A stretch of DNA of 64,000 bases, taken from contig QWRJ01000002.1 in assembly GCA_003670475.1 (NCBI GenBank), positions 34,240-98,239 on the forward strand, written 5' to 3'. The position numbers and the translations under genes are program-made. The notes beneath the pieces are model-generated. The model saw nothing but the letters and a program-made list of their open reading frames with translations, did no database searches and was not told the DNA's origin. The DNA is from Candidatus Limnocylindrus sp. ZSMar2m-chloro-G89 (GTDB lineage: Bacteria > Chloroflexota > Limnocylindria > Limnocylindrales > Limnocylindraceae). Shown piece by piece: positions 15,194 to 61,715 of this stretch. Numbering within the stretch: the stretch's first letter is position 1; every line of letters begins with the position of its first letter.

Positions 15194-15340
15194 AGGTTCC
15201 CTTTGCCAGCCGTGCTCCGCGGGCTGGCGCGCGGTAATAGGTCAGTTTTCCAGCCAGGTGGCTGGGGTTGAAGGCTACGACCTCTAGGGGGGAGTGGTCA
15301 AACGCCTCGTGGCGGGGTGCCTGAAGCCTCCTGGCAGGGC

Positions 15341-22652: not shown

Positions 22653-25223
22653 GTGATGAGCATGGCTGGTTCGCACCGCCCTGAGGGTTCCCCACGAGCG
22701 CGTCGCCGTAGCGGCGGGCTGGCGGTACTCCTCCCCCTGGCACTCTTCGCGATCAGCCTCTTCATTGCCGTCATCGCATATGTAGGCACTATCCGGGTCT
22801 ACGACCGCGTGGTGACCGATCTCCCCGACCCTCGCGACCTTGACTCTATCGTGCTCGGTGAGAACTCTGGGGTCTTTGATCGCACTGGGAGCGTGAAGCT
22901 CGCGGACTTCGGCACCGACCTGCGCGAGACGATCGACTTTGATCAAATTCCGAGCATCATCATCGACACCACCACCGTCATTGAAGATAAGACCTACTGG
23001 CAGAACTCTGGCTTTGACCCGCTCGGCTTTATCGCCGCCGCCCTGGACACGCTTGGTGGATCCGGTCGCGGAGGCTCCACCATCACCCAGCAGCTGGTGC
23101 GCGGCATTCTCTTGCCTGACACAGCCTTCCAGGGGAGTATCTACGAGCGCAAGGTGAAGGAGATCATCCAGGCGATCCGCCTCACCCAGGAGTTCCCAGG
23201 GCGCGATGGGAAAGAGCAGATCATCACCGCCTACATGAACAACAACTACTACGGCTCACGTGCCTACGGCATTCGTGCAGCGGCAACCGAATACTTCGGC
23301 ATCTCTGATCTCACCCTGCTCACCCTGGGCCAGGCGGCGCTCCTCGCCGCCATCCCACAAGCACCGAGTGAATTTGACCTGCGCCTCGCCGCAGTTCGTG
23401 GAGAAGATGGACTACTCCACGTCCCGTTGGATAGCCCTGTAGTTCAGCGTCGCACCACAGTACTTAACCTCCTGCGTAACGCCAAAAGCGATGGCATCCC
23501 GCTTGAAACCCCCGACATCACTGATGAGGAGATTGATGCCGCCGCAACGGAGAGCATCACCCTGATTGAGCCGCCCCTCCGCAAGGTGCGCGCACCACAC
23601 TTCATCAACATTGTTCGCGAGGCGGCGGCTGGAATTGTCTGCCCAGACGATCCAAGCGTCTGCACCAAGCTCGACACCGACGGCTACAAGATCATCACCA
23701 CGCTCGATTGGTCGATGCAACAGAGCGCGGATAAGTGGGCTGCTGCTGTCCTCTCCGCTGAGATGGCGGACTACAAGCCGTATCTGGCCTCGCTGGGCAT
23801 CCCAAAGCCGACAGATTGGCTGAAGAAGATGCGTGGTGCCAATATTCATAACGCGGCGATCGTCACGATGGATGCCCGCACCGGAGATATGCTCGCCTAC
23901 ACTGGTTCGGCCGACTACTACGCCACCTCAATCACTTCCGCCTTCCAGCCAGAGTACGACGTGCTGAAGGCGTATCGACAGCCGGGGTCAGCAATCAAGC
24001 CAATCATCTATGGCTATGCGCTCCAGGAGCGTGCGGTGACGCCGGCAACTATCTTCATGGACGTACCGGTCGACTTCGGTGAGGGCTGGACGCCTGGCGA
24101 ATGGGACAACCTTGAGCGCGGACCTGTGACCATGCGCCATGCCCTCCAGGGGTCGCTCAACATTCCCGCGGTCAAGACGGCGATCCGCACCGGCGCCGAC
24201 CAGATCTGGCGCGACATGCGTGACGGCGTCTTCAAGTTCCTCGGGGAGGATAATTACGCTGGCGCCTCTATTGCGATCGGCACGCTAGAGGCACGCTACG
24301 TGGATCTTCTTTCCGCGTACGGCGCGCTCGCAAGCCAGGGCGATACAGTACCCAGACGCTACGTGCTCCGAATTGAGGACCGCAACGGTGACGTCATCTG
24401 GAAGGCGGCCACGCCGTCAAGCGAGCGACGCAGCGTCATGGAGCCAGCGGTTGCCGACCTCGTCACCAACATCATCGCCGCGAATACTGATCCGTCGCAG
24501 AACCCGGTCTGGGCGTCGCGCCGTCTCATCGCTGCGAGCGGGAAACGTCGCCCCGCCACCTTCAAGACCGGAACAACGGACCAGGCGAAGGATCTCGCCG
24601 CCTTCGGCTATCTCGCCGCTCCCACAAACCCTGACGCGCAACATCTCGTGACAGGCGTATGGACGGGGAACTCCGATGCCACGCCTGCCACCGTGCTCTC
24701 GCTTTCAGCCGCTGGGGGCCTCTGGCAGTCCTACTTTACGGAGATCACACGCGACCTTCCGATCGCTCAGTTCAAAGATCCAGAGGGGCTTGAGCAGGTG
24801 GTCATTGACGCCAACACGGGCGAGCTCCCCGGCCCCTGCACCACTGCGACGATCTCTGAGTACTTCCTGCCTGGCACCGCCCCAACCACCTCATGCAGCA
24901 CCTTCCGCACGCTCGCCGTTGATCAAGCAAGCGGACTTCTCTGGGATAGCTCCTGCAGCAGCACGCGCATTGAGAAGGTGTTCATGGATCTCAGCCTGCT
25001 GGAGACAGAGTGGCCGACTTGGCAGGCGGCAAACATTGAGTGGGCGGAGCGGGCACGCCAAGGGATCAATGTGATCGGCGGCGCACGACTCGGTGCAACG
25101 ACCTACTTCTACGAGTCCTACTGGCGACCGAACGGCAACACGTGGGGTGGCGACATTGCGCCAACTCGCTCCTGCAGTTCACCACCGCCGCCGCCTGCAC
25201 CAACAGCAGCACCGAGCCCGTAA
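22653..25223 (+). CDS. Class A penicillin-binding protein (transglycosylase + transpeptidase) with Pro-rich C-terminal tail
   Basis: N-terminal TM anchor, GT51 motifs (EDKTYWQNSG, ITQQLVR), transpeptidase SxxK (PGSAIKP), C-terminal SSPPPPAPTAAPSP. Confidence 0.85.
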   Translation: MMSMAGSHRPEGSPRARRRSGGLAVLLPLALFAISLFIAVIAYVGTIRVYDRVVTDLPDPRDLDSIVLGENSGVFDRTGSVKLADFGTDLRETIDFDQIPSIIIDTTTVIEDKTYWQNSGFDPLGFIAAALDTLGGSGRGGSTITQQLVRGILLPDTAFQGSIYERKVKEIIQAIRLTQEFPGRDGKEQIITAYMNNNYYGSRAYGIRAAATEYFGISDLTLLTLGQAALLAAIPQAPSEFDLRLAAVRGEDGLLHVPLDSPVVQRRTTVLNLLRNAKSDGIPLETPDITDEEIDAAATESITLIEPPLRKVRAPHFINIVREAAAGIVCPDDPSVCTKLDTDGYKIITTLDWSMQQSADKWAAAVLSAEMADYKPYLASLGIPKPTDWLKKMRGANIHNAAIVTMDARTGDMLAYTGSADYYATSITSAFQPEYDVLKAYRQPGSAIKPIIYGYALQERAVTPATIFMDVPVDFGEGWTPGEWDNLERGPVTMRHALQGSLNIPAVKTAIRTGADQIWRDMRDGVFKFLGEDNYAGASIAIGTLEARYVDLLSAYGALASQGDTVPRRYVLRIEDRNGDVIWKAATPSSERRSVMEPAVADLVTNIIAANTDPSQNPVWASRRLIAASGKRRPATFKTGTTDQAKDLAAFGYLAAPTNPDAQHLVTGVWTGNSDATPATVLSLSAAGGLWQSYFTEITRDLPIAQFKDPEGLEQVVIDANTGELPGPCTTATISEYFLPGTAPTTSCSTFRTLAVDQASGLLWDSSCSSTRIEKVFMDLSLLETEWPTWQAANIEWAERARQGINVIGGARLGATTYFYESYWRPNGNTWGGDIAPTRSCSSPPPPPAPTAAPSP

Positions 25224-28124: not shown

Positions 28125-30607
28125 TGCGTTTCGGCGCCGCGCACCTTTGTTCCGTAGCGCTTCGCGGCAGTTGTAGTGAAGGCGTCAACCTCGGCTGTGA
28201 TCGCGCCGTCGAGCGCGGCTGCGGCATCTGGCTGGAAGGTGAAGCGCAGCCCAACGGAGCGTTCACCAGGCGCCATCCCTCCACCCGCGAAGAGATCAAA
28301 AAGTTCCACTGATACAGCCAACTTCACCGACTCCCTCGCTAGAGCAACAAGGTCACCAATCAGGACGCCAGCGGGGGCGGCGAGTGCAACGTCGCGCTGG
28401 ATTGGTGGTGTCCCTGGTGGGAGGAGCACACGACGAACAGCTGGCTGCCCACTGCTGAGACCGTGCAGCGCAAGCTCCGTCATCAGGATGCGTGGCGCAG
28501 GCCGCCACTCAGCTGCCGCTGGATGCAACTCTCCGATCAGCCCAGCGATGCCTTCGCCAGTAGCGCGCGCCGAACGCCCTGGATGCAACAGCGTTGCGTC
28601 GCCCGCTTCGAGTGGGAGGTAGCGCGGCGTTGCGTTGCAGAGTGAGGCGACCGAAGCGACCAGTCGCTTCAGCTCATCAAGGTCCCAGAGGCGTGGTGCG
28701 CCACCTGGCGCGGCGGCGGCGATCTCGCCCCAGACAACGATGCCGAGGCGCGTCCACTCCGTTGGTCCACCCTTGGTGCCGCCGTATCCACGGCCGATCT
28801 CAAAGAGTGCGCCGCTGAGTGCGCCGTATCGAAGGTTCGCCTCCGCGCGGTCGAGCAGGCTCGGCAAGAGCGAGCGACGGAGTTGATCATGGTCGGCAGA
28901 GAGCGGATTGCTGAGCAGGAGCGTCTCGCTCGCCGCTGCACCCTCGCGCTCGGCGAGTGGACCGGTGACAAGGCCGACAGGCTCAGCGTGTCGATCACTT
29001 AGCGCTGGAGAGACCAGCGCATGCGTCACCGCTTCGCTCAGCCCCTGGGCGGCGAGCGAGGTGCGCACCTGATCGCGTAGCGCGGTTGGCTGCGGAAGGT
29101 AGCCAGGAAGGTCGCGTCCGGGCAGCGTTGGTGTGATGCGGTCGTATCCGTAAAGCCGCGCCACCTCTTCGGCAATGTCGGCCTCAAGCTCCAGATCGCG
29201 CCGCCATGGTGGCACTACTGCGAGCAAGCTCTCCCCCTTCGCAGCGCTCACCGCTCGCTTGCTCGTGACTGGAACACTCGTCGCCCCCTTTGCCTCGGTC
29301 ACGCTGATCGCAATGCCCGCGAGGAGCTTGCTCTGTTCGGCGTCAGGAATGCTCACGCCGATCAGCTGGCGCACGCGCTCAGGACGGAAGGCGAGTTCAC
29401 GTGTCTGACCGACCGCCTTCGGATCACTGTCGAGCTGGCCGCGACGCGCCGTGCCACCCGCCCATGTCGTAATCAGAGCCGCAACCTGATCCGCTGCGAG
29501 TGACGCAAGGTCAAGCTCCTGGCCACGCTCAAAGCGGTGCGATGCCTCCGAGCGGAGACTGTGTCGCTGTGCGCTGCGCCGAATCGTCGTTGGGGCGAAG
29601 ACGGCACTCTCAATGACCACGCTCTTCGTGGCGGCGGAGACTTCACTTGAGGCGCCACCCATCACGCCGGCGAGGGCGAGCGCGGCGCGCTCATCAGCGA
29701 CCACAAGATCGCTCGCATCAAGGGTCCGCTGCACATGGTCGAGCGTCTCAAGCTGCTCCTTCGCCTTCGCCTGACGAATCTGGATGCCAGTGCCAACTGC
29801 GGCGCGATCGAAGGCGTGGGTCGGCTTCCCAAGTTCGAGCATGATGTAGTTCGTCGCGTCCACCACGTTAGAGATGGAGCGGAGACCCGCCGCCTTCAGG
29901 CGCATCTGGATCGCATCTGGGGCTGCGGCGACCGTAACGCCATCCACAACGCGTAGCACCACGCGCGGCGCAAGCGCAGGGTCGGCAACGGTGAGCTTCA
30001 GGCCCTCCCCAACCTCACTTGAGCCTTCGGTGAGTTTCCGTGCGGCGTACTTCACCGGTGAACCGGTAATCGCCCCCACCTCACGTGCCAGGCCAAGCAG
30101 CGAGAGGAGGTCGCCACGATTCGGCTTCACATCAACGTCAATGACGTCTTCACCAAGGTAGTCACTGATCGGCACGCCGAGTGGCGCCTTCGCGTCAAGG
30201 ATCAAGATACCGTCGCCATCGTCAGTTGCGTCGAGCTCTGCGCCAGAGCAGAGCATCCCTTCCGATGCAACCCCCATCTTCTCCGCACGCTCAATCAGTC
30301 GTCCATCTGGCATCAGCGCGCCGACAAGCGCAACAGGGACGCGCTGCCCAGCGGCGATATTGCGCGCGCCGCAGACCACCTCAAGTACCTGATCTTTTCC
30401 GATGCGCACCTTGGTCAGCTGCAGACGATCGGCGCGAGGGTGTGGCGAAACTTCAAGGAGCTCGCCTACGACCATCTTCCCCCAGTTGCCGCCCCATCGC
30501 TCAAGGCCGCGAACCTCAAGTCCGCGCAGGGTGAGCGCATCGGCGAGCTGCTCGGGTGTGAGCTGCACATCAACGAACTCGCGAAGCCAGGAGAGCGGCA
30601 CCCTCAT
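28121..30607 (-). CDS. pheT: Phenylalanine--tRNA ligase beta subunit
   Basis: MRVPLSWLREFVDV canonical N-terminus; B3/4, B5 and FDX-ACB domains. Confidence 0.95.
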   Translation of the reverse strand: MRVPLSWLREFVDVQLTPEQLADALTLRGLEVRGLERWGGNWGKMVVGELLEVSPHPRADRLQLTKVRIGKDQVLEVVCGARNIAAGQRVPVALVGALMPDGRLIERAEKMGVASEGMLCSGAELDATDDGDGILILDAKAPLGVPISDYLGEDVIDVDVKPNRGDLLSLLGLAREVGAITGSPVKYAARKLTEGSSEVGEGLKLTVADPALAPRVVLRVVDGVTVAAAPDAIQMRLKAAGLRSISNVVDATNYIMLELGKPTHAFDRAAVGTGIQIRQAKAKEQLETLDHVQRTLDASDLVVADERAALALAGVMGGASSEVSAATKSVVIESAVFAPTTIRRSAQRHSLRSEASHRFERGQELDLASLAADQVAALITTWAGGTARRGQLDSDPKAVGQTRELAFRPERVRQLIGVSIPDAEQSKLLAGIAISVTEAKGATSVPVTSKRAVSAAKGESLLAVVPPWRRDLELEADIAEEVARLYGYDRITPTLPGRDLPGYLPQPTALRDQVRTSLAAQGLSEAVTHALVSPALSDRHAEPVGLVTGPLAEREGAAASETLLLSNPLSADHDQLRRSLLPSLLDRAEANLRYGALSGALFEIGRGYGGTKGGPTEWTRLGIVVWGEIAAAAPGGAPRLWDLDELKRLVASVASLCNATPRYLPLEAGDATLLHPGRSARATGEGIAGLIGELHPAAAEWRPAPRILMTELALHGLSSGQPAVRRVLLPPGTPPIQRDVALAAPAGVLIGDLVALARESVKLAVSVELFDLFAGGGMAPGERSVGLRFTFQPDAAAALDGAITAEVDAFTTTAAKRYGTKVRGAETQ

Positions 30608-42843: not shown

Positions 42844-44274
42844 CTAGCCGTTTGGCGCGGTGATGCGACGTGATGCGCGCGGAAGTGGATGCAGCTCAAT
42901 CGCTTCGCCAGCGGCGTATTCGCCGACCTCTTCTGGCACGACCCCCAAATAGTCGGTCCGCGCCAGCACTGAGACCTGATGGCTCCCCTGCTCCCCTGCC
43001 AGTCGTACCCGCACGCGACCTGAAGGATCGTGCAGCGGTGCACCATCTTCATCGCGGAGTGCAGCGAGGCGAAGGAAGGAGCGCCTCCCAAGCGGACTCT
43101 CGACGCGCTCCTCAAGCAGTCCCACAGCTCGTAGCCCGCGTGCCGGTCGTCCAGCAAGCGCCCGAAGGAGTGGGAGCGCAACCTCAACGCCTACGACAAA
43201 CGCACTCACCGGATTCCCAGGGAGGCCGATTGCCCAGAGTGCACCGTCGCCACCAGCGCGCCGTCGACCGAGGAGCAGTGGCTTCCCCGGCTGAATTGCA
43301 AGGCGCCAGACGACCAACTCAAAATGCGTTGCGAGCGCTGCACCAACATGATCGTGCGCCCCCACGCTGACTCCTCCTGTTGTCACCAGGAGGTCAGCCT
43401 GCGCGGCGAGCGCCGCAACGACCGCGCCGGTTGCCTCCGCCGTATCGCCAACATGTGCACGCGCAACAACCTCGCCCCCTTCGGCGGCAATCAGCGCAGC
43501 GAGAGCGGGGCCATTACTGTCGCGAATTCCTCCATCAGCCGCGTTGTTGAGCAGTTCGTCGCCTGTCGTTAGAAGCGCAACCCTTGGTCGCCGCACCAGG
43601 GAGAGATCCGCTGCGCCACTCGAAAAGATGACGGCGAGCAGCCCAGCATCAATAGCTGCACCAGCTTCAGCGAGAAGACTCCCCACGCGCTGATCCTCAC
43701 CGCGTCGGCGAATGTGCGCACCGACTTTGACGCCACCGCTCACCCATACATGCGCTGGAAGCTGCGCTGGGACGCGCTGCAGTAGTACTCCGCCGCGATC
43801 TGGATCCGCGATGCTGCTCCGCTCCACAGGGATCACCGTCGTGCCGCCTTGTGGAATCGGTGCTCCAGTTGCGATGCGCTGACACTCCCCATCGCGCAGC
43901 GGCGTGGCACTGAGTGCGTGACCTGCAGCCGCATCTCCAACACAGGTCAATCGGCGCGGTGCGCCGCTGGACGCTTCAGCTGCATCAGCCAACGTCGTAA
44001 CCCAGCCATCCATTGCCGAAACATCAAATGGGGGGTGATCAACAGCCGCGCAGAGCGGCTCGGCGAGCGTCCGCCCGATCAGCGAGGCGGCCGTCTCATC
44101 GCTGACTGCGATTCGCTCCGCAGGGAGCGGCGTGACCTGCGCCAAGAGGCGGACAAGAAGATCGTCAATCCGCTCAAGCTCCGCTGGAACCGGCTCGCTC
44201 ACTGCAGGCTCTGGAGCAGAAGGATTGAGGCGATCGCTCCGAGCGGTGCGTTGAGCCAGAGGAATCGGCGCCAT
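42844..44274 (-). CDS. moeA: Molybdopterin molybdenumtransferase MoeA (true start probably about 30 codons inside the ORF)
   Basis: MoeA domains incl. MogA-like central domain TTGGVSVGAHD; ORF-track start would overlap the upstream gene by 76 nt. Confidence 0.85.
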   Translation of the reverse strand: MAPIPLAQRTARSDRLNPSAPEPAVSEPVPAELERIDDLLVRLLAQVTPLPAERIAVSDETAASLIGRTLAEPLCAAVDHPPFDVSAMDGWVTTLADAAEASSGAPRRLTCVGDAAAGHALSATPLRDGECQRIATGAPIPQGGTTVIPVERSSIADPDRGGVLLQRVPAQLPAHVWVSGGVKVGAHIRRRGEDQRVGSLLAEAGAAIDAGLLAVIFSSGAADLSLVRRPRVALLTTGDELLNNAADGGIRDSNGPALAALIAAEGGEVVARAHVGDTAEATGAVVAALAAQADLLVTTGGVSVGAHDHVGAALATHFELVVWRLAIQPGKPLLLGRRRAGGDGALWAIGLPGNPVSAFVVGVEVALPLLRALAGRPARGLRAVGLLEERVESPLGRRSFLRLAALRDEDGAPLHDPSGRVRVRLAGEQGSHQVSVLARTDYLGVVPEEVGEYAAGEAIELHPLPRASRRITAPNG

Positions 44275-45743
44275 GCAGCACGGGCCGCCCCCCAGTTTGG
44301 CCTCCCACGAAGAAGTGGGAGCACCGAGCAGCCGCTTGCGATCGGAATAGCCGCAGCGAGCTGCATCAGCACGGACGGCTGAGCCAAGAGTGGCAGCGCG
44401 GCGAGCAGATAGGCCAGCAGAATCACCCGCGAGGTGCGGCGCTCCCCAAGCAGTGTTGCGACTGTGGCAATCCCGCTTCGCTTGTCAGCCGACACATCTT
44501 GCAGCGCACCAAGCGCATGGCTCGCAACGCCCCAGAGCGCAAGCGCCAGAAGCGGCGCAATCCACGCCGAATCCAGCGTGACGCCGAGGAGGAGCCCTGC
44601 GATCGGCGGGATCAGGAAGTGTATTGAGGAGACAACGGAGTCAAGGAGCGGGACCGCACGCGCCCGTACGAACCAAGGAGCGCTGTAGAGCGTTGCAAAG
44701 AGGATCGCAATGAGCGGCATAAGGTTCGCCGGCGCAGGGAGGGCGATCGCCATAATCAGCGCTGGCACCAGACCTGCAGCCACGAGTGCAACGCGAAGTG
44801 GAGCGAGGTCGCGCCCGCGAAGGAGCGCACCCTCCGCACCACCCTTGCGCGGATTTGCCGCGTCACTGGCACGGTCATAAAGATCATTGATGCCGTAGAG
44901 GTAGAGGTTGTACCCAGCTCCCCACCAGAGGATCGGAGCAAGCAGCCATCCGCCGAGCGCCTCCCCAGCACCGGCCGCAAGCACGCCTCCAACGAATGGG
45001 AGCGCGGTGTTCACCCAGGAGATTGGCCGCGCAGCGAGGAAGATCCTCCATGCGCTCCCCTCCCCTAGCAGCACCTCTGCACGCAAGCGCAACGCCACAC
45101 CTGCGAGCCCGACGGCATAAAGAAGATCCTCGACCGGCGCTGTGCCAAGCAAGACGCCACTACGTGGCTCCCCTGGATACGTCAGCACTCCTAGGTAGCA
45201 GAGCACGTTATCGAAGATCAGTGTCAACACGATGAAGACGAACGCAGCGACGCGCGTACCATGATCGCGCCGCAGTAGTTGCGCAGCAAGCGCCACCCCC
45301 GCTCCAGCAAGCACTCCAGCTGCAACGCTGTATTCAGCACCACTCAGGATCGCCAGCAGCAACCCGCCACTCAGTGCGCCAATGCAGGCATCAAACACGC
45401 CACGGCGAAGTCCCAGTGTGACGCGACTCGCAACCCTCCCCTTCCCGAAGGCATCCGCAACAACCACAAGGAGTGATGTGATGCCGAAGAGGAGGAGTGG
45501 CTCTTCAATTGGGAACCCGCGACCGAGAGGGCCAGCGCCAGGGAGGGAGAGTGCCGTTGCGCTAGAAGGAGTCGCAAACCATCCCCGCGCGAGCCCAACC
45601 GTATCTACGAGCAGAAAGCCAATTGTCGTTGCGATCACAACTGGAAGAAGCACGTCGCGTCGCATCTGCCGACTCCAGCGCAGCGCAAGGCCACGGATGC
45701 CAACGATCGAGCCGATGATCGAAAGCAGATAGAGCGCGCTCAT
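44199..45743 (-). CDS. Fusion protein: two lycopene-cyclase-domain (CrtYcd-like) repeats + UbiA-family prenyltransferase; candidate carotenoid elongase/cyclase
   Basis: PxE(E/D) cyclase-domain motifs (GFPIEEPLLLFG; APVEDLLYAVG) in two N-terminal 3-TM repeats; UbiA Asp-rich motifs NDLYDRASD and DVSADKRSGIAT in the C-terminal half. Confidence 0.65.
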   Translation of the reverse strand: MSALYLLSIIGSIVGIRGLALRWSRQMRRDVLLPVVIATTIGFLLVDTVGLARGWFATPSSATALSLPGAGPLGRGFPIEEPLLLFGITSLLVVVADAFGKGRVASRVTLGLRRGVFDACIGALSGGLLLAILSGAEYSVAAGVLAGAGVALAAQLLRRDHGTRVAAFVFIVLTLIFDNVLCYLGVLTYPGEPRSGVLLGTAPVEDLLYAVGLAGVALRLRAEVLLGEGSAWRIFLAARPISWVNTALPFVGGVLAAGAGEALGGWLLAPILWWGAGYNLYLYGINDLYDRASDAANPRKGGAEGALLRGRDLAPLRVALVAAGLVPALIMAIALPAPANLMPLIAILFATLYSAPWFVRARAVPLLDSVVSSIHFLIPPIAGLLLGVTLDSAWIAPLLALALWGVASHALGALQDVSADKRSGIATVATLLGERRTSRVILLAYLLAALPLLAQPSVLMQLAAAIPIASGCSVLPLLRGRPNWGAARAAWRRFLWLNAPLGAIASILLLQSLQ

Positions 45744-46490
45744 CTATCGCCTCCGTCGTCGTGCGGCACGAAAGCCGGCCGCCGCGGTAACGACTAGCAC
45801 GGCACAGAATCCGATCGCTGCCGCCACCCAGAAGGTTTCGGGGTAGAGCCGCACCAGGCGATCCGTTGCAGGATTAAATGTCCAGGTCCCTGCTGGGAAG
45901 AGCAGCTGATGTGCTGCGGTGAACGTTGCATCAAAGGCGAAGAGGAAGGCGCCTCCAACGAGCGCAGCTCCCGCACCAAGCAGCACCGCTCCATCGCGAA
46001 CCCCTCGCAGCACCCATCGTCTTCGTCGAATGGCGAGCACTGAGAGAAGAGCAAGCGCACCTGCGCCGAAAAGAACGAGTCCGCGAAAGAGCAGACCGAC
46101 ATCCACAAGGTGCGAGCGTTCAGCAGCGCTCAAGAAGATCTCGTCGCCCAGTTGTGCGTCAAAGGCTCCACCGAAGAGGAGATCGCGTACCAGCGCATCA
46201 GAGAGCGCATACGCAGTCGGTGCTTCAACGCCGAGAAGGGCGGGGGCGCTCGCAAGGTCGAGCAGCGCATGGACGACGGGTGGAAGAAGGAAGAGGAGTA
46301 GCGTGAGGGCGAGCAGCGCAACCAGTACCGCAACGGCCAGCAGCGCTCGCCGCGCTACGCGGCGCAACGCTTTCACGCGTCGACGAGGACGCGACCCTGC
46401 TCCCACCATGACCTGACTGAGAGGGGATCTGGCGCAACTCGTCCAAGCAGCACTGCCGCTCGCGTTACCGCAGCCTGAAAGTCTCCCCAC
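45744..46490 (-). CDS. 4-TM integral membrane protein of unknown function (possibly DUF1461/TIGR01906-like)
   Basis: Four predicted hydrophobic helices; stop abuts the start of the downstream fusion gene. Confidence 0.45.
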   Translation of the reverse strand: MGRLSGCGNASGSAAWTSCARSPLSQVMVGAGSRPRRRVKALRRVARRALLAVAVLVALLALTLLLFLLPPVVHALLDLASAPALLGVEAPTAYALSDALVRDLLFGGAFDAQLGDEIFLSAAERSHLVDVGLLFRGLVLFGAGALALLSVLAIRRRRWVLRGVRDGAVLLGAGAALVGGAFLFAFDATFTAAHQLLFPAGTWTFNPATDRLVRLYPETFWVAAAIGFCAVLVVTAAAGFRAARRRRR

Positions 46491-46762
46491 TCGCTCTCCG
46501 CGAGTACCTGGATCCCGGGGTAACCCGCCGCTGCGAGCAACTGATGTTCCGATGGGCCGAAGAAGGCAAGATTCAGGAGCAGCGCTTCATCACGCCACTC
46601 GCCAACATCGGCAAGGGAGGCGTCGGTCTGGTCGGCGAGGGTCTGGCGACGCGTTGGCGTCTCGCTCCGTTCAAGGAGGAGGCCCGTCGTGAAGATCCCC
46701 TGCGCCTCAAGGCGCGCGAGGTGGACCGGCTCAATGCGGGTGAGCTGAACGATCGCTGGCAT
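46373..46762 (-). CDS. Small soluble protein, tentatively DUF4332 (tandem HhH-like repeats)
   Basis: MPAIVQLTRIEPVHLARLEAQGIFTTGLLLE and LNLAFFGPSEHQLLAAAGYPGIQVLAE repeat pattern; start placed at internal Met. Confidence 0.4.
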   Translation of the reverse strand: MPAIVQLTRIEPVHLARLEAQGIFTTGLLLERSETPTRRQTLADQTDASLADVGEWRDEALLLNLAFFGPSEHQLLAAAGYPGIQVLAESEWGDFQAAVTRAAVLLGRVAPDPLSVRSWWEQGRVLVDA

Positions 46763-46863
46763 CAGTACCTCCTCGCGGCATCGTAGCGCCTCCCCCCTCA
46801 CAGGCGTGCCGAGGTGGGCAAATTGTTACAATCACCAGCCTGCGCAACGCCTCGGGGGCAACG

Positions 46864-46936: not shown

Positions 46937-47680
46937 ATGAGTCCAGAGATGGGATATCAGTTGGTCTATAACTTTATGTCCCTCGCCATCGCGGCGATGG
47001 GTGCGAGCTTCTTCTTCTTCGTCTCCGCAAGGGGATCGCTGAAGGAAGGGAACCGCATGGCAGTCACGCTGTCAGCCACTGTTGTGCTGATCGCGTTCTA
47101 TCACTACGTCCGCATCTTCGACTCGTGGGTCGCCACGGCGGGTGTCGGAAATCCAGGCGCGTTCAACGAGGGCTACCGCTACGTTGACTGGCTCCTCACG
47201 GTGCCACTCCTCGTCGCAGAGTTGATCCTCGTCCTTCGCTTGGACAAGAAGGTTGAGAGCAAGCTGATCCAGCGAAATGTGCTCTACGCCTTCCTCATGA
47301 TCGCAACCGGATACATCGGCGAGCTGGATGTCCAGACCTCCGTGGTTCTTGACTCCTCACGCACGATCTGGGGCGCTATCAGCACGATCTTCTTCGTCCT
47401 GATCCTGCGCGACCTCTTCGGTGGCATCGAGGCCTCCTTCAAGAGGCAGAGCAAGGAGATCCAGGGGATCTTCAAGGTACTTCGCGTTGTGCTTATCGCC
47501 ACGTGGGGTGTCTACCCAATCGCCTATCTCCTTCCAACGATTTCGACCAGCCTCGGCCTGACGGCTGGGGACGGCCTCGTGCTAAAGCAGATTGGTTACA
47601 CGATCGCGGACATCCTGGCGAAGCCAGGCTACGGTCTCCTCATTTGGAAGATCGCAACCCTGAAGAACTCAGGCCGCTAA
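46937..47680 (+). CDS. Type-1 microbial rhodopsin, DTE motif (predicted light-driven outward proton pump), xanthorhodopsin-like antenna-site Gly
   Basis: Helix C RYVDWLLTVPLLVAE (D84/T88/E95); helix G DILAK (D225, Schiff-base K229); retinal pocket WGVYP; W145-G146 where bR has W137-W138; 7 TM helices; GGGAGGG SD. Confidence 0.85.
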   Translation: MSPEMGYQLVYNFMSLAIAAMGASFFFFVSARGSLKEGNRMAVTLSATVVLIAFYHYVRIFDSWVATAGVGNPGAFNEGYRYVDWLLTVPLLVAELILVLRLDKKVESKLIQRNVLYAFLMIATGYIGELDVQTSVVLDSSRTIWGAISTIFFVLILRDLFGGIEASFKRQSKEIQGIFKVLRVVLIATWGVYPIAYLLPTISTSLGLTAGDGLVLKQIGYTIADILAKPGYGLLIWKIATLKNSGR

Positions 47681-49231: not shown

Positions 49232-50664
49232 CGAGAGCCGCCTCCGGTGCGCCCGCCACCCTTGCCACGCTCACGACCCTCTTCGGCGGAGCGCTCGCGC
49301 ACCACGATCCGGATCGGCGTGCCGTTGAGCGGGTAGCGCTCACGAATCTGATTCTCAAGGAAGCGCTGCCAGCTGAAGTGCACCTGCGCTGCGTTGCGGG
49401 CGAAGAGGACAAAGGTGGGGGGCGGCGTGGCCGCCTGCGCCGCGTAGAGGATCTTCGGTCGCTTACTCCCGCTATGCACCGGCCCCTGCCGAGCGACCGC
49501 CTCGGCGACTAGGCGATTCAGCGCGCCTGTTGGGATGCGCAGCTGCCGCGCGTCAGCCGCCGCGATCGCCGCATCAAGCACCTTCGTGGCGCGAAGTCCG
49601 GTCAGTGCAGAGATGGAGACGATCGTCGCAAAGTCAAGGAAGGGCGCCTGGCGGCGAATCAGGCCCATCGCCGTGTCAAAGGTGAAACCGTCTTTATCAA
49701 CCAGGTCCCACTTATTCATCACGATGACGAGCCCCTTCCCAGCGTCAATCACCGAACCCGCTACATGAAGGTCCTGCGCCTGGAGTCCTGTCGATGCGTC
49801 AATGATCAGCAGCGCAACATCGGCGCGATCAAGGGCCGCGACGGAACGGACGGTGGCGTACTTCTCTGCAACAGGTCCTGAAGCGATCTTGCCGCGACGC
49901 TTGATCCCCGCCGTGTCAACGAGCGTGATGTGACGGCCGGCGTGTTCAATCTGGTCATCGATCGCGTCGCGCGTTGTTCCTGGCACATCGCTCACCACCG
50001 TTCGCTCCTCGCCGAGGAGTTGGTTTAGGAGGCTCGACTTACCAACGTTTGGGCGACCAACAATCGCCACCGTTACTTCGCCCTCGCGTGTCTGCACGCC
50101 ACTATCCACAGGGAGGCCGCGCAGGCTCTCAATAAGCACGTCAAGCAGGTCGCCCGAGCCGATCCCATGCTGCGCGCTGACTGGATAAATCGCATCAAAG
50201 CCGAGTGAGGCAAACTCGTGCGAAGCGCGCTCGCGATCAATGTTGTCCGCCTTATTCGCGGCGAGGAGGATCGGCTTCCCGCTCTTGCGCAGCAGTAGCG
50301 CCACCTCGGCGTCGCCTGGGTTTGGGCCGGTTGCGGCATCCACCACCAGGATGATGAGATCGGCGTTCGTTACGGCGATCCGCGCCTGATCCTGTACCGC
50401 GACGTCAATCACGTCCCCCTGTGACGGTTGCATCCCGCCAGTGTCAACGAGACGGAAGCGGAAGCCGTTCCAGTCGGCGATTGCGATCAGTCGATCGCGT
50501 GTTGTCCCTGCGCGATCCTCAACCACGGCGCGGCGCTCGCCAACGAAACGATTGAAGAGCGTACTCTTCCCAACGTTCGGGCGGCCAACCAGTGCAACGA
50601 GCGGCAGTCGCTCCTGCGTGATCTCCTCCACCGCGATCCCTGCGCGCTCAGAGCGCCGGGTCAC
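49228..50664 (-). CDS. der: Ribosome-biogenesis GTPase Der/EngA (tandem GTPase domains + KH-like)
   Basis: Two G domains (GRPNVGKS x2). Confidence 0.9.
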   Translation of the reverse strand: MTRRSERAGIAVEEITQERLPLVALVGRPNVGKSTLFNRFVGERRAVVEDRAGTTRDRLIAIADWNGFRFRLVDTGGMQPSQGDVIDVAVQDQARIAVTNADLIILVVDAATGPNPGDAEVALLLRKSGKPILLAANKADNIDRERASHEFASLGFDAIYPVSAQHGIGSGDLLDVLIESLRGLPVDSGVQTREGEVTVAIVGRPNVGKSSLLNQLLGEERTVVSDVPGTTRDAIDDQIEHAGRHITLVDTAGIKRRGKIASGPVAEKYATVRSVAALDRADVALLIIDASTGLQAQDLHVAGSVIDAGKGLVIVMNKWDLVDKDGFTFDTAMGLIRRQAPFLDFATIVSISALTGLRATKVLDAAIAAADARQLRIPTGALNRLVAEAVARQGPVHSGSKRPKILYAAQAATPPPTFVLFARNAAQVHFSWQRFLENQIRERYPLNGTPIRIVVRERSAEEGRERGKGGGRTGGGSR

Positions 50665-51617
50665 TGGGTGTCCGAAGTGCTAAGTGATGTGGTGCGGTAC
50701 TGCGGCGTTGCCGCGGCGGCGAGCGCCTCATGCGCAATCTCTGCTGCCTTGACCTTCATGCCCTCCGTGCCAGCAAGCTGAACGATGGTTCGAACGACCA
50801 CCTCAAGGTCTTCAATCGGGGTGCTCGTGCCACCGGTTACCCCCACACGCTTCACGCCAGAAAACTGTGCCGCATCGGTGAGATCCTTGGCAGATTCGAT
50901 CTGTAGTGCGCGCGTCCCATTGATCTCGCAGAGTCGCGTCAACTCTTTTGTGTTGGCGCTCTTGCTCCCGCCAACAACGACCATCAGGTCAACCTCTCGC
51001 GCCGCCTCCAGCGTGTCCTCTTGACGACGGATGGTGACGGGGCAGACGGTGTTTACCACCTTGAGTTCATGACAGCGTGAGACCATGAAGGCGGCGAGGC
51101 GCTCAAACTTCCATGGCGGTTGCGTTGACTGCGTGATCAGCGCCATCCGCTTTCGGCGTGGGATCTTGACCCAGTCCTCCTCTTCGTCAACCAGGATTGC
51201 GTTCGGCGCGAATCCAAGGAGCCCCACAACCTCCGGGTGGTTCGGCGTTCCAAGGAGCACAATGTCGTACCCCTCGTCCACGAGCTTCGCCAACTCACGA
51301 TGCTCCTGCACCACCCAGGTGCAGGTCCCGTCAATCACCTCAAGGCCACGACTCACTGCACGCTCCAGCACTTCAGGGGTGACGCCATGTGCGCGGATCA
51401 CCACCGCCGCACCCTCCTTCACCTGATCAAGGCTCTCAACGTTTTCAATGCCGCGCTGATGCAGGTCGGCGATCAGCCCCTCGTTGTGCACCACATGGCC
51501 GAGCGTGTGGGTCGCCTTCCCCTCCGCACTCGCAAGTTTCGCCTTATCAATCGCCTCACGGACGCCATAACAGACGCCGGTACGGCGGGCGATACTGATG
51601 CTCTCAACGCTTCCCAT
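50661..51617 (-). CDS. ispH: 4-hydroxy-3-methylbut-2-enyl diphosphate reductase
   Basis: CYGVREAI..., conserved Cys ligands (GTCTWV; NTVCPV). Confidence 0.9.
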   Translation of the reverse strand: MGSVESISIARRTGVCYGVREAIDKAKLASAEGKATHTLGHVVHNEGLIADLHQRGIENVESLDQVKEGAAVVIRAHGVTPEVLERAVSRGLEVIDGTCTWVVQEHRELAKLVDEGYDIVLLGTPNHPEVVGLLGFAPNAILVDEEEDWVKIPRRKRMALITQSTQPPWKFERLAAFMVSRCHELKVVNTVCPVTIRRQEDTLEAAREVDLMVVVGGSKSANTKELTRLCEINGTRALQIESAKDLTDAAQFSGVKRVGVTGGTSTPIEDLEVVVRTIVQLAGTEGMKVKAAEIAHEALAAAATPQYRTTSLSTSDTQ

Positions 51618-51716
51618 GCGCCGATTATCCCCTAGTCGGCTCCTCGGAGTCCCAGCCACGCGTCAGGCGGCGCGCAGGAGGCTCTCTGGGCCCCCAGCAG
51701 GGGCGAAACCTGCGGC

Positions 51717-59717: not shown

Positions 59718-61715
59718 CTATCGAGCGCGGCGTGCCCCCCATGCGGCGCGGATCTGGCGTTCAATCCCCGCCTCGTCCAGACCGATCAGCGTACGCAGCG
59801 CTGAGACGCTTCCGTGGTCCACGAAGGCGCCAGCTGGAATGCCGATGCTGAGCAGCGTGGCGCTGATCGGCTCACCTGTTGCCGCCTGATCCGCGGCGAG
59901 CGACTCAGCGACCGCTCCACCAAATCCACCCGCAGTGACGCTCTCCTCCAGCGTGACGATCATCTTGCTGCTGCGACCGAGACGTCGATAGAGCGCATCA
60001 TCAATCGGGCTCGCCCAGATGGCATTGACAACACCAACGGAGAGCCCGGATCCGCGCAGCTGCTCAGCCACGCGAAGCCCACGCTGCACGATCGGGCCGA
60101 AGCCAACAATCACGATGTCGCTCCCCTCGGCGAGCGTCTCCGCCTTTCCGACTGGAATTGGACGCGGTTCACGCGGAGCGACGCCCTCAATGCTGTCGCG
60201 CGGATAGTGCAGCGCAAATGGATGGTCTTGCGCAAGTGCCGTACGGACAAGGGCGCGAATCTCCTGCTCATCCTTCGGTGAGGCAATGACGAGACGCGGG
60301 ATCTGACGCTGTGCGGTGAGCGTGAACATCCCCTGATGGCTGGTGCCATCTTCGCCAACGAGGCCGGCGCGGTCCACCCCAAAGAGCACTGGCTGGTCGT
60401 TCTGGCAGGCGTCATGGACGATCTGGTCCCATGCGCGCTGCAAGAAGGTTGAGTAGATCGCAACCACCGGACGACCGCCGCCCATCGCAATCCCCGTTGC
60501 GGTTGCAACGGCGTGCTGTTCTGCAATCCCAACGTCATAGAAGCGATCGGGATATGCGGCCGCAAACTTGTCAAGGCCAGTCCCTGTAGGCATACCGGCG
60601 GTGATCGCCACGATGCGGCGATCGTCCGCAGCCGCGGCGATCACTTCAGCAGCGAAGAGCGCTGTGTAGTTCGGTCGTTTTGGCGCAGGTGCCTCTGGAA
60701 CACTGCCACTCTTCCCGTATGAATCCGTTGGAACGCCGACCTCCATCTTCGGGAGCGCTGCGCCGTGGAAGGTGATCGGATCCGCCTCAGCGGGACGGTA
60801 GCCGCGACCCTTCTGCGTCCGCACATGCACGATCACCGGACCTGGCATGGCGAAGGCGGCGTTGAAGGCCTCCTCCATCTGCATCCGGTCATGGCCATCA
60901 AGAACACCGACATAGGTGATGCCGAGATCCTCAAAGAGACGTCCAGGCTCCTGCACGAATGAGACAACGGAGCGTCTCAGGCTCTTTGAGAGGCTCAACA
61001 GCTTGTTGCCAATCAGCGGAAGGGATCCGACAAACTTGTCATACCCGCTCTTACTCCCACGCCATGTCTTTGAGAGCTTCACCTTGGAGAGATACGTGGA
61101 GATCGCGCCAACGGTTGGGGAGATGGACATCTCGTTGTCGTTCAGCACAATCAGCATCTTGGTCTGGCGATGCCCGATGTCATTGAGCGCTTCCAGGCTG
61201 AGCCCACTCATCAGCGCCGCGTCGCCCACAACCACCGCAATCTTTTCACTCCCGCCGCGCACATCGCGTGCCAAGGCAAGGCCCTGACCAATAGAGATGC
61301 CCGTCCCCGCATGGCCACCATCAAAGACGTCATGCGGCGATTCTGTTCGTCGCGGGAAGCCACCAATTCCGCCGAGTTGACGCAAGCTACCGAATCGCGC
61401 GAGGCGACCGGTGAGGAGCTTGTGCGGATACGCCTGATGCCCAGTGTCAAAGACGATGCGATCCACCGGTGAGGCCATCACGTGATGAAGTGCGATCGTC
61501 AACTCCACCACGCCGAGGCTTGGGCCGAGGTGGCCGCCAGTCACTGCGGTGGTTGCGATGATCGCAGTGCGAAGCTGCTCACCGATCTGGTTGAGCTCGG
61601 CGCCGGAGAGTCCCTTCAGGTCCTCAGGGCCCTCAAGGCGCGCGAGGAGCGAGTCGGCGCCGACCGCGCGCAGCGCAACCCCTTCGTCCACCCCTGGCTT
61701 CGTCACCGCACTCAT
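59718..61715 (-). CDS. dxs: 1-deoxy-D-xylulose-5-phosphate synthase
   Basis: TPP-binding GDG...N motif, transketolase-like domains. Confidence 0.95.
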   Translation of the reverse strand: MSAVTKPGVDEGVALRAVGADSLLARLEGPEDLKGLSGAELNQIGEQLRTAIIATTAVTGGHLGPSLGVVELTIALHHVMASPVDRIVFDTGHQAYPHKLLTGRLARFGSLRQLGGIGGFPRRTESPHDVFDGGHAGTGISIGQGLALARDVRGGSEKIAVVVGDAALMSGLSLEALNDIGHRQTKMLIVLNDNEMSISPTVGAISTYLSKVKLSKTWRGSKSGYDKFVGSLPLIGNKLLSLSKSLRRSVVSFVQEPGRLFEDLGITYVGVLDGHDRMQMEEAFNAAFAMPGPVIVHVRTQKGRGYRPAEADPITFHGAALPKMEVGVPTDSYGKSGSVPEAPAPKRPNYTALFAAEVIAAAADDRRIVAITAGMPTGTGLDKFAAAYPDRFYDVGIAEQHAVATATGIAMGGGRPVVAIYSTFLQRAWDQIVHDACQNDQPVLFGVDRAGLVGEDGTSHQGMFTLTAQRQIPRLVIASPKDEQEIRALVRTALAQDHPFALHYPRDSIEGVAPREPRPIPVGKAETLAEGSDIVIVGFGPIVQRGLRVAEQLRGSGLSVGVVNAIWASPIDDALYRRLGRSSKMIVTLEESVTAGGFGGAVAESLAADQAATGEPISATLLSIGIPAGAFVDHGSVSALRTLIGLDEAGIERQIRAAWGARRAR

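Follow-up and report, generated by a model that had tools for sequence, protein, structure and literature searches.

Introduction

Lycopene beta-cyclases of the fusion type CrtYc-CrtYd are found in Sulfolobus, Algoriphagus and haloarchaea, and the fungal proteins CrtYB/CarRP join a cyclase to phytoene synthase. Each lycopene cyclase domain repeat is expected to carry a PxE(E/D) acidic motif. In UbiA structures, the Asp-rich motifs NDxxDxxxD and DxxxD bind Mg-diphosphate. For C50 carotenoids, the closest described precedent is lbtBC of Dietzia, in which one cyclase subunit is fused with the elongase (PMC6393565, PMC6669644). LbtBC works together with LbtA, in E. coli (PMC6393565); the pair from Dietzia sp. 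CQ4 belongs to the C.p.450 pathway of Tao et al. 2007, as that work is cited in PMC6393565 and PMC6669644.

Some freshwater bacteria combine genes of this kind with a rhodopsin. Aurantimicrobium minutum KNC and Rhodoluna lacicola have a xanthorhodopsin-like rhodopsin with crtYe/Yf/crtEb and without blh (PMC7734400). A. minutum lacks crtYc/Yd as well, yet makes retinal, and the authors proposed an unknown route leading from a cyclic C50 carotenoid to retinal (PMC7734400). Limnocylindraceae, the family studied here, are numerous in lakes, have streamlined genomes and acquired rhodopsins on colonising fresh water (PMC6169038, PMC13212565).

A three-part fusion protein

The window, meaning the whole 64-kb stretch of Limnocylindrus DNA analysed, encodes a protein of 514 aa identical to RLT31817.1 of Candidatus Limnocylindrus sp. 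ZSMar2m-chloro-G89, recorded as "hypothetical protein". Its features are as follows.

44199..45743, minus strand: whole fusion gene, ATG start, 514 aa plus stop; CrtYe-like part, linker helix, CrtYf-like part, CrtEb-like part
45444..45743, minus strand: repeat 1, CrtYe/LbtA-like first cyclase subunit type, aa 1-100 (tblastn, N1 profile, AF2, dN/dS)
45501..45512, minus strand: PIEE motif of repeat 1 (aa 78-81), where its helix 3 begins; P78, E80 and E81 invariant
45342..45443, minus strand: linker, aa 101-134, with one extra helix at 112-133 (AF2); least conserved portion of the protein
45060..45341, minus strand: repeat 2, CrtYf/LbtB-like second cyclase subunit type, aa 135-228 (profiles, tblastn)
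45126..45137, minus strand: PVED motif of repeat 2 (aa 203-206), where its helix 3 begins; P203, E205 and D206 invariant
44202..45047, minus strand: UbiA-superfamily prenyltransferase half, CrtEb-like lycopene elongase type, aa 233-514 (PF01040, NF009608, fold, tree)
44862..44888, minus strand: first Asp-rich motif NDLYDRASD, aa 286-294; N286, D287, D290 and D294 invariant
44484..44498, minus strand: second Asp-rich motif DVSAD, aa 416-420; D416 and D420 invariant

A sequence-only reading of this DNA had proposed the reading frame and quoted four motifs from it. All four are present: GFPIEEPLLLFG at aa 76-87, APVEDLLYAVG at aa 202-212, NDLYDRASD, and DVSADKRSGIAT at aa 416-427. The frame lies on the minus strand, a detail that reading had left out. 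The order of parts in the protein is the crtYe-crtYf-crtEb gene order of C50 carotenoid clusters, as seen in Microbacterium and in a cluster from Chloroflexota. A confident AF2 model (pLDDT 83.8, pTM 0.83) has 3+1+3 helices followed by a UbiA fold, with predicted helices at 2-23, 29-53 and 80-100 in repeat 1 and at 137-159, 161-183 and 204-227 in repeat 2. In this model the linker helix would give both three-helix repeats the same orientation in the membrane.

Distribution and selection

An exhaustive search of 1.84 billion representatives found the three-part fusion to be a single family, carried by 18 GTDB species that are all Limnocylindria or unclassified Chloroflexota MAGs. Full-length homologs across these species are 514-525 aa long and 41-94% identical. 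The four catalytic motifs show no variation in 29 full-length sequences; those of the two cyclase repeats stay invariant in the three most divergent members too. Mean pairwise identity is 27% in the linker, against 58-66% in the other parts. The ratio dN/dS is 0.05-0.13 for repeat 1, 0.05-0.17 for both repeats and 0.05-0.22 for all three modules.

Separate genes in relatives overlap by a few bases (see also PMC6393565), so that single-base errors could join them, and a frameshift, a misassembly or a decaying pseudogene might in principle unite three genes in one long ORF. The exact window protein, however, was found on 166 contigs from several sources, and the full-length architecture recurs in 18 GTDB species with its own dedicated linker helix; the fusion is therefore not an assembly artefact. 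It is natural and under purifying selection, and the chance of an artefactual origin, effectively refuted by these conservation data, is negligible.

The UbiA half

A C-terminal UbiA prenyltransferase with both Asp-rich motifs had been proposed, and this reading holds. PF01040 matches aa 248-497 with E 1e-19 and 71.3 bits, above its gathering score of 34.2. Foldseek aligns this half with 4TQ3, 4OD5 and 7BPU at TM-scores of 0.63-0.70 (normalised to target) and probability 1.00. The best NCBIfam model is NF009608 (PRK13105), at 203.7 bits, 13 bits short of its curated cut-off of 217; the next models score 126 and 103. Reference scores against the same model are 437 for CrtEb from the canonical C50 cluster of Microbacterium, 425-478 for double fusions and 285 for the Chloroflexota protein in which CrtEb is joined to a GT2 glycosyltransferase. 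Phylogeny, one of the checks suggested at the outset, agrees: in a neighbor-joining tree, 100 of 100 bootstraps recover the fusions as a monophyletic group, and 100 of 100 place them with CrtEb-type proteins, away from the PRK12875-type outgroup. They appear as sister to the Chloroflexota Eb-GT2 clade with only 37% bootstrap.

Source annotations read 4-hydroxybenzoate polyprenyltransferase or generic UbiA family prenyltransferase, and the fusion gene lies apart from crtB and crtI; neither gene occurs in the 64-kb window, in its 10-kb extensions or at any Limnocylindria fusion locus. Both facts would suit a prenyl acceptor other than a carotenoid (a quinone, a lipid or another aromatic compound), the likeness to CrtEb then reflecting membership of the superfamily and nothing further. 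We consider this very unlikely. Heme O synthase and MenA models are absent from the matches of this half, and the UbiA, ChlG and DGGGP-synthase models, among the models listed, score 17-27 bits against 204 for the CrtEb model, so these results do not count against the sequence-only reading. The tree places the protein on the CrtEb side, and its partners in the chain are carotenoid cyclase subunits in crt-cluster gene order. Colinearity, NF009608 and the tree thus agree with the core proposal of two heterodimeric-type cyclase subunits and a CrtEb/LyeJ-type UbiA protein in one polypeptide.

The two cyclase repeats

Library models recognize the cyclase half poorly, and of the two HMMs proposed for the search, TIGR03462 and PF01040, only PF01040 scores above its cut-off in the window protein. 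Repeat 2 of the window protein stays under the curated cut-offs, with 21.1 and 25.5 bits against 27 for PF18916 and 31.7 against 39.4 for TIGR03462. Other family members pass the PF18916 cut-off, homolog P0021 with 31.4 bits and L028 with 29.2. For repeat 1, searches with five members gave no library HMM match, even with the E limit raised to 10. The cyclase half matched no solved structure, and a profile search with the N-terminal half returned fragments only.

Comparison with separate subunits is more informative. Repeat 2 matches the second subunits of a Chloroflexota C50 cluster (Chl_Y2, tblastn E 5e-8) and of Microbacterium (Mic_crtYf, E 1e-7). Aa 4-89 of the fusion are matched by Chl_Y1, the first cyclase subunit of the Chloroflexota cluster, with a tblastn E of 9e-9, and Mic_crtYe matches repeat 1 at E 0.008. 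A profile of repeat 2, N2, matches the second subunit in 64 of 64 unrelated loci. The repeat 1 profile, N1, matches the ORF directly upstream of it in 30 of these 64; N1 never fell on the second subunit in the 64 loci, nor N2 on the first. The identity of repeat 1 is drawn from the Chl_Y1 match, the N1 matches and the invariant PxEE. Compared directly, the two repeats are not significantly similar (BLASTP E 0.066; hhalign E 0.09, though in correct register). It is therefore homology to two subunit types, rather than similarity between the repeats, that supports the claim of two cyclase repeats with PxE(E/D) motifs.

The weak library scores and the lack of significant internal similarity would both fit a protein in which only the elongase is catalytic, giving an acyclic C45/C50 product of flavuxanthin- or bacterioruberin-like kind, with the cyclase-like half as a membrane scaffold or substrate-binding module, an alternative that the sequence-only reading itself had raised. 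An authentic C50-cluster first subunit scores weakly as well, however: Chl_Y1 reaches only 26.3 bits (E 8e-6) against TIGR03462, under the 39.4 cut-off. PxEE and PxED, and with them D47/D178 and Y5/Y138, are invariant even in sequences whose cyclase half is as little as 33% identical to that of the window protein, and dN/dS in the repeats is as low as in the UbiA half. A mere scaffold is accordingly disfavored, and we regard it as improbable.

Supply of lycopene

The proposal to look for crtB, crtI and crtE elsewhere in the genome was productive for the first two at the level of the lineage. CrtI clusters carry the name Candidatus Limnocylindrus, with crtB immediately 3' of crtI. This crtI-crtB locus is separate from the fusion, on a contig of the lineage, not necessarily from the genome to which the window belongs. 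It is syntenic (Acs, IclR, crtI, crtB) with a Chloroflexota locus that keeps Y1-Y2-Eb before crtI, and in that cluster the cyclase and elongase genes are still separate. Neither crtE nor blh was located.

A divergently transcribed rhodopsin

Upstream of the fusion gene lie the following features.

46937..47680, plus strand: xanthorhodopsin-type proton-pump rhodopsin, RLT31820.1 (PF01036 E 4e-40; 3DDL E 9e-54), divergent partner of the fusion
45744..46490, minus strand: Lit-family membrane protein (PF07314/TIGR01906), whose stop codon abuts the fusion ATG
46373..46801, minus strand: DUF4332 protein, first gene of an apparent operon of DUF4332, Lit-like and fusion genes
46823..46830, minus strand: TGTAACAA, a conserved element between the rhodopsin gene and the operon, 22 bp before the start of the DUF4332 gene

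The sequence-only reading had overlooked the adjoining rhodopsin, which we judge the more interesting part. It is closest to xanthorhodopsin. An alignment with 3DDL shows the D-T-E motif (VDW...LLT...AEL), the Schiff-base Lys (LAKPGYG) and a Gly aligned with residue 156 of xanthorhodopsin ("TIWGAIS" against "GLWGFLS"), the Gly that we take to be the contact site of the carotenoid ring. The divergent rhodopsin-fusion pair is found at every Limnocylindria locus with enough flank, in three unrelated neighborhoods. The Lit-like gene is co-operonic with the fusion in most family members and missing from three divergent loci; where it starts is uncertain, as its longest ORF runs into the DUF4332 gene. 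TGTAACAA may serve as a promoter element of the extended -10 type or as an operator.

A rhodopsin needs retinal, and neither blh nor a further cyclase gene was seen adjoining the rhodopsin or crtI-crtB. The two halves might then not act in sequence: the cyclase half could be a lycopene beta-cyclase that makes C40 beta-carotene, the retinal precursor, while the UbiA half separately elongates part of the pool. Two-repeat fusion cyclases that make beta-carotene are described from Sulfolobus and Algoriphagus, in work cited in PMC2889829, and C40 and C50 cyclases are not told apart by sequence here. Among the loci sampled, however, the detectable relatives of both repeats all lie directly upstream of a CrtEb gene, and a permanent covalent bond to an elongase favors a shared pathway. 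That C50 cyclases accept lycopene is, moreover, not established (PMC7734400). Separate action of this kind seems unlikely.

Proposed function

We propose that a single polypeptide makes a cyclic C50 carotenoid from lycopene, for the rhodopsin or under common regulation with it, and put the probability of this reading, drawn from sequence comparison, at roughly 0.6. Lycopene would come from CrtB and CrtI, encoded at the separate Limnocylindrus locus. The UbiA half would use its two Asp-rich motifs to prenylate C-2 and C-2' of lycopene, the donor being dimethylallyl diphosphate supplied by the MEP pathway. The acyclic C45/C50 intermediate would be handed directly to the covalently linked pseudo-heterodimeric cyclase, whose two PxE(E/D) acidic motifs would close the rings to give a cyclic C50 carotenoid resembling decaprenoxanthin, sarcinaxanthin or C.p.450. 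For the rhodopsin this pigment may be an antenna, a structural or photoprotective partner, or a chromophore precursor. Because the fusion is split from crtI-crtB and kept divergent to a xanthorhodopsin-type pump, we infer that pigment and rhodopsin are produced together and that the pigment probably serves the rhodopsin.

A tentative and somewhat doubtful extension is that the pair forms a two-gene light-harvesting module, the pump directly using the cyclic C50 carotenoid either as an antenna at the Gly opening or as a substrate for blh-independent cleavage. Cleavage, if it occurs, would yield retinal or a ring-prenylated retinal analog, the missing step proposed for A. minutum (PMC7734400). 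The adjacency may instead mean no more than that both genes are regulated by light in common, or were transferred together on one island.

If the proposal holds, a 514-aa protein that performs both C50 end-group steps would be a compact part for pathway engineering, and the fusion would be a naturally occurring system for testing whether a UbiA elongase and a membrane cyclase channel substrate between them. Limnocylindraceae, though streamlined, retain the fusion at the rhodopsin locus, which makes testable the question of what C50-type carotenoid genes do for xanthorhodopsin-like pumps where the known retinal pathway seems absent (PMC7734400). The public names (hypothetical protein, 4-hydroxybenzoate polyprenyltransferase, generic UbiA) would hide such a carotenoid function.

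Comparison with known systems

The fusion-type CrtYc-CrtYd and fungal CrtYB/CarRP proteins, compared by description only, resemble the window fusion in having two lycopene-cyclase-domain repeats per chain, and in the fungal proteins these are likewise joined to another carotenoid enzyme. Both act on C40 lycopene, however, and the fungal partner is phytoene synthase rather than a UbiA elongase.

CrtYe/CrtYf/CrtEb of Corynebacterium glutamicum and CrtE2/CrtYg/CrtYh of Micrococcus luteus, the decaprenoxanthin and sarcinaxanthin systems, comprise the same three protein types as the fusion, with the order crtYe-crtYf-crtEb, the NF009608 model and the cyclase and Asp-rich motifs in common. There the three are separate genes within a crtE-crtB-crtI operon, in Actinomycetota; the UbiA half of the fusion is 32-42% identical to this group and falls below the NF009608 cut-off by the margin given above. 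Among non-fusion relatives, the highest mean identity to the UbiA half (35-41%) belongs to Chloroflexota proteins of about 670-720 aa, such as P0070 in L012, in which CrtEb is fused to a glycosyltransferase (UbiA+GT2). Their locus is syntenic with the Limnocylindrus crtI-crtB locus and has two small cyclase genes directly upstream. Unlike the window fusion, they have a C-terminal glycosyltransferase as partner, their cyclase subunits are separate, and no rhodopsin is nearby.

A. minutum KNC and R. lacicola share with the source of the window a freshwater planktonic life and a xanthorhodopsin-type pump together with C50-type cyclase and elongase genes. They differ in being Actinomycetota with separate genes in a crt cluster that the rhodopsin does not adjoin; no rhodopsin was found within 10 kb of the crt loci in Rhodoluna and Aquiluna.

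Of the 64 loci that encode the nearest relatives of the UbiA half, 62 are clusters with the arrangement crt(E)BI-Ye-Yf-Eb. A two-part fusion of one cyclase subunit with the elongase occurs at 32 of the 64 related loci and in at least 10 library representatives. With this and Dietzia lbtBC, the earlier statement that cyclase subunits and elongase are separate genes in known C50 clusters falls. The companion statement, that no single elongating and cyclising polypeptide had been described, narrows: only the three-part fusion is undescribed, and the two-part precedent is published. LbtBC resembles the window fusion in order and in kind of junction, its second cyclase subunit lying in frame and N-terminal to the elongase. 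LbtBC, however, has 432 aa and needs a separate LbtA, whereas the window protein, at 514 aa, has the first subunit joined on through an added linker helix and is encoded outside any crtEBI cluster, paired with a rhodopsin.

Domain content of the fusion protein

The fusion gene is an open reading frame on the minus strand (44199-45743, ATG start). Its 514-residue product is identical to RLT31817.1, "hypothetical protein DWI65_00965" of Candidatus Limnocylindrus sp. ZSMar2m-chloro-G89, from a freshwater Chloroflexota lineage described as SL56 (PMC6169038). All four motif strings quoted in the sequence-only reading occur in this frame, at residues 76-87, 202-212, 286-294 and 416-427. The exact protein is recorded on 166 contigs, and the notion that the frame is an artefact is rejected as having virtually no chance of being right.

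The proposed UbiA domain is recognized by Pfam at residues 248-497 (E 1e-19, over the gathering score). The lycopene cyclase domain scores below the cut-offs: Pfam matches residues 156-214 at 21 bits (threshold 27), and the NCBIfam model TIGR03462 gives 31.7 bits where 39.4 are required. In the C-terminal half, NF009608/PRK13105 reaches 203.7 bits (cut-off 217), while the other UbiA-type NCBIfam models listed all fall under 30 bits. NF009608 is effectively the CrtEb model, giving 437 bits for the CrtEb of a Microbacterium cluster, 425-478 for proteins in which a CrtYf-like subunit is joined to a CrtEb-like elongase (two-part fusions), and 285 for a Chloroflexota protein in which the UbiA domain is joined to a GT2 domain (Eb-GT2).

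The isolated first repeats of five family members have no Pfam match. Pfam recognizes the first subunits of genuine C50 clusters poorly too, so the missing match is typical rather than alarming. Direct similarity between the repeats is not significant, either by BLASTP (E 0.066, an off-register match of 20 residues) or when the two family profiles are aligned with hhalign (E 0.09, in the right register). The identities of the repeats therefore rest on homology to two types of cyclase subunit.

Homology to separately encoded C50 carotenoid genes

Outside its own family, the UbiA half is closest to 297-residue Microbacterium prenyltransferases and to Chloroflexota UbiA+GT2 proteins of about 700 residues. 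The loci of these relatives are canonical C50 carotenoid clusters, ordered idi-crtE-crtB-crtI-crtYe(109 aa)-crtYf(120 aa)-crtEb in Microbacterium and Y1(102 aa)-Y2(102 aa)-Eb-GT2-crtI-crtB in a Chloroflexota MAG, where Y1 and Y2 are the cyclase subunits. Proteins of both clusters match the window colinearly, all within one reading frame.

Matches of separate cluster proteins to the fusion (tblastn against the window)
Y1 (first subunit): fusion residues 4-89, E 9e-9
CrtYe: fusion residues 35-95, E 0.008
Y2: fusion residues 159-218, E 5e-8
CrtYf: fusion residues 161-231, E 1e-7
CrtEb: fusion residues 234-510, E 2e-36

Family profiles of the two repeats are subunit-specific. In 64 unrelated loci, the repeat 2 profile matched the second subunit in every case and the repeat 1 profile matched the reading frame directly upstream of it in 30, with no cross-match to the other position. 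A further match to Microbacterium CrtYf at 29883-30005, considered as a second cyclase gene in the window, falls inside pheT and was dismissed as chance.

The references for the cyclase half were subunits of C50-type clusters, so these comparisons do not tell a C50 from a C40 type of cyclase. A profile search with the N-terminal half for C40-type relatives returned only three fragments of the fusion's own family. We regard it as unlikely that the product of the cyclase half is C40 beta-carotene, serving retinal formation.

Predicted structure and selection

An AlphaFold2 model of the fusion, built with 29 homologues as input, is confident (pLDDT 83.8, pTM 0.83).

Helical segments of the AlphaFold2 model
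Residues 2-23, 29-53, 80-100: repeat 1
Residues 112-133: linker helix
Residues 137-159, 161-183, 204-227: repeat 2
Residues 240-511: C-terminal helical bundle

The third helix of each repeat opens with an acidic motif, PxEE in repeat 1 and PxED in repeat 2. Y5 and Y138 occupy equivalent N-terminal positions, corresponding to the "LYL" and "EYT" with which the free subunits begin. In the model, the single linker helix, being odd in number, would place both three-helix modules in the same orientation. The C-terminal bundle can be overlaid on solved structures of the UbiA family (target-normalised TM-score 0.63-0.70); a fold search of the PDB found no matching structure for the cyclase half.

Across the family, the UbiA half and repeat 1 are the best conserved parts (mean pairwise identity 66% and 63%), followed by repeat 2 (58%), and the linker is far less conserved (27%). 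Values of dN/dS in the three modules are 0.05-0.22, and the catalytic motifs are invariant in the family; the two cyclase motifs persist even where identity over the cyclase half drops to 33-37%. From this conservation, repeat 1, repeat 2 and the UbiA half all look functional. The same low dN/dS and invariant acidic motifs argue against activity of the elongase alone beside a non-catalytic cyclase-like half, an explanation we consider quite improbable.

Precedent, distribution and phylogeny

The sequence-only reading took cyclase subunits and elongase to be separate genes in known clusters. This does not hold. In Dietzia sp. CQ4, lbtBC joins one cyclase subunit to the elongase in a protein of 432 residues that works with LbtA and was termed unique (PMC6393565; the fusion is also described in PMC6669644). 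When one genome per GTDB species was scanned and reading frames analyzed, LbtBC-like two-part fusions made up 32 of the 64 loci outside Limnocylindria, mostly from Actinomycetota, with one from Sphaerobacteraceae. The two-part fusion is thus common, despite the label given to the Dietzia example.

The three-part form, containing both subunits and the elongase, is rare: of 1.84 billion cluster representatives searched exhaustively by HMM, just three are full-length members (514-519 aa), alongside fragments. Below these, the list continues with two-part fusions, Eb-GT2 fusions and unfused CrtEb-like proteins. Carriers comprise 18 GTDB species, assigned to Candidatus Limnocylindrus, Candidatus Aquidulcis and unclassified Chloroflexota MAGs, with the exception of one freshwater MAG labelled Thermoflexus hugenholtzii.

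In a neighbor-joining tree of UbiA domains, all 100 bootstraps place the three-part fusions together with CrtEb-type proteins, apart from the PRK12875-type outgroup. A prenyl acceptor other than a carotenoid is rejected as very improbable. The three-part fusions are monophyletic, again in 100 of 100 bootstraps; support for the Chloroflexota Eb-GT2 clade as their sister is weak, at 37 of 100. Because of this monophyly, and because none of the 64 other loci joins the two cyclase subunits to each other, the three-part fusion is, on the sequence evidence, a new arrangement of domains in a system already known, and one that arose once.

Other architectures were seen in these searches. Chloroflexota among loci L031-L092 carry the UbiA+GT2 arrangement (about 670-720 aa). 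Protein P0158 (852 aa) has an HpnE/phytoene-desaturase-like N-terminal half and a CrtEb-like UbiA domain. Locus L077, from a MAG labelled Candidatus Saccharibacteria, has a 681-residue reading frame with a CrtEb-like domain, plus crtE, crtB and crtI; carotenoid genes are unexpected for so reduced a lineage, and a binning error may be responsible.

Pairing with a rhodopsin gene

The sequence-only reading makes no mention of a divergently transcribed rhodopsin gene 1.2 kb away from where the fusion gene starts.

Features between the fusion gene and gpsA
45744-46801, minus strand: DUF4332 and Lit-family genes, upstream of the fusion, with stops and starts abutting or overlapping
46823-46830, minus strand: motif TGTAACAA (core TGT-A-ACA), in the shared rhodopsin/operon intergenic region, 22 bp upstream of the DUF4332 start
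46937-47680, plus strand: rhodopsin, RLT31820.1
48119-48195, minus strand: tRNA-Pro(GGG), directly past the rhodopsin 3' end, between rhodopsin and gpsA

The best solved relative of the rhodopsin is Salinibacter xanthorhodopsin (E 9e-54). It carries the D-T-E proton-pump motif and the Schiff-base lysine, and has Gly aligned with xanthorhodopsin residue 156, which we take to be the position giving a carotenoid ring access to retinal. The rhodopsin gene is poorer in GC (57-59%) than the sequence on either side (63-65%), in keeping with the reported gain of rhodopsin by Limnocylindraceae on entering fresh water (PMC13212565).

Most family members share the arrangement rhodopsin <- / -> DUF4332, Lit-like, fusion, within a long conserved housekeeping synteny block, where pairing would alone prove little. 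Three more divergent species present two wholly different neighborhoods.

Neighborhoods in the divergent species
L028: cysK-like <- rhodopsin <- / -> fusion -> nhaA
L025 and L026: fabF, DUF1905, orf, DUF1761 <- rhodopsin <- / -> fusion, <- msrAB

All three lack the DUF4332 and Lit-like genes, leaving rhodopsin and fusion as immediate divergent neighbors. What is conserved is therefore the pair, not its surroundings. In L025, the gene that directly follows rhodopsin (1382-1813, minus strand) encodes a small DUF1761 membrane protein.

Across loci L001-L010 and L013-L030, most Limnocylindraceae carry the DUF4332 and Lit-like genes; the Lit-family membrane protein (PF07314) distantly matches solved Lit 7B0O (E 7e-5). 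The motif TGTAACAA is single-copy in the 64-kb window and keeps its place in six of eight informative loci. One of the six is L028, in which the fusion itself comes next. An extended -10 element and a binding site for a regulator are both possible roles for the motif. tRNA genes often serve as integration sites, so the rhodopsin/fusion block next to this one may be an island acquired as a whole.

Proposed lycopene supply and origin of the locus

tblastn finds no crtB or crtI in the window, nor in 28 Limnocylindria loci; for crtE it gives only a weak match (E 0.021, window 23745-24008). The 10 kb beyond each window end holds housekeeping genes only, with neither crtB nor crtI. A search for them elsewhere, suggested in the sequence-only reading, shows that the lineage has them: CrtI clusters named Candidatus Limnocylindrus have hundreds of members (P0278, P0279, P0275, P0284), 65-68% identical to CrtI of the Chloroflexota C50 cluster (L012), and a Limnocylindrus-like contig, L096 (GC 63.8%; window 63.2%), carries crtI followed by crtB.

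L096 reads acetyl-CoA synthetase remnant, divergent IclR regulator, crtI, crtB; L012 reads Acs <- (MscS) <- IclR <- (aminotransferase) <- / -> Y1, Y2, Eb-GT2, crtI, crtB. Genes common to both are 57-71% identical, and descent from one ancestral locus would be the simplest reading of these sequences. On the simplest reading too, the cyclase-elongase module has gone from the crtI-crtB locus of Limnocylindraceae and is now one fused gene beside rhodopsin; we infer this direction of change. The acetyl-CoA synthetase gene upstream of IclR in L096 (7293-8888) matches over just 532 of 653 residues, and the gene caller's product there is a 295-residue protein on the opposite strand without a Pfam match. 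Probably the gene is decaying, in line with genome streamlining.

The MEP-pathway genes ispH (50661-51659, minus strand) and dxs (59718-61715, minus strand) lie in the window and ispG just past its start (1-257 of the extension L093), so the elongase's DMAPP donor is encoded nearby, inside housekeeping synteny blocks. A crtE or blh gene of the lineage did not turn up. The annotated loci contain no match to PF15461 (Blh), a count that covers loci and makes no statement on whole genomes. L096 also encodes an ABA4-like (PF14108) membrane protein (15126-15581), 3 kb from crtB; ABA4 in plants is linked to neoxanthin synthesis. Elsewhere in the window (9683-11293, minus strand), a 536-residue protein combines a Rieske [2Fe-2S] domain with an SCP2_Rv3818 domain; it is mentioned only with a view to the enzyme that would split a carotenoid into retinal.

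Proposed function and comparison with known systems

The best-supported explanation, with a probability of roughly 0.6, is that the single polypeptide would act as a cyclic-C50-carotenoid synthase using lycopene, genetically coupled to the rhodopsin. That the rhodopsin uses the resulting carotenoid directly, either as an antenna or as a precursor of its chromophore, is a more tentative and rather doubtful proposal.

The significance of the pairing comes from a study of Aurantimicrobium minutum, a freshwater actinobacterium with a xanthorhodopsin-like pump and crtYe/Yf/crtEb, without blh and crtYc/Yd. It still makes retinal, and an unknown pathway via a cyclic C50 carotenoid was proposed (PMC7734400). 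Limnocylindraceae inhabit fresh water too and belong to another phylum. Their genomes independently support a connection of C50-type enzymes with xanthorhodopsin-type pumps, and their rhodopsin and fusion form a two-gene module open to direct testing. Papers on Limnocylindria and their supplements make no mention of SL56/Limnocylindraceae carotenoid or retinal genes.

The fusion belongs to the same system as CrtYe/CrtYf/CrtEb and goes one step further than LbtBC. It differs in being a full fusion with a linker helix, in lying apart from crtEBI, and in its obligatory pairing with a xanthorhodopsin-type pump.
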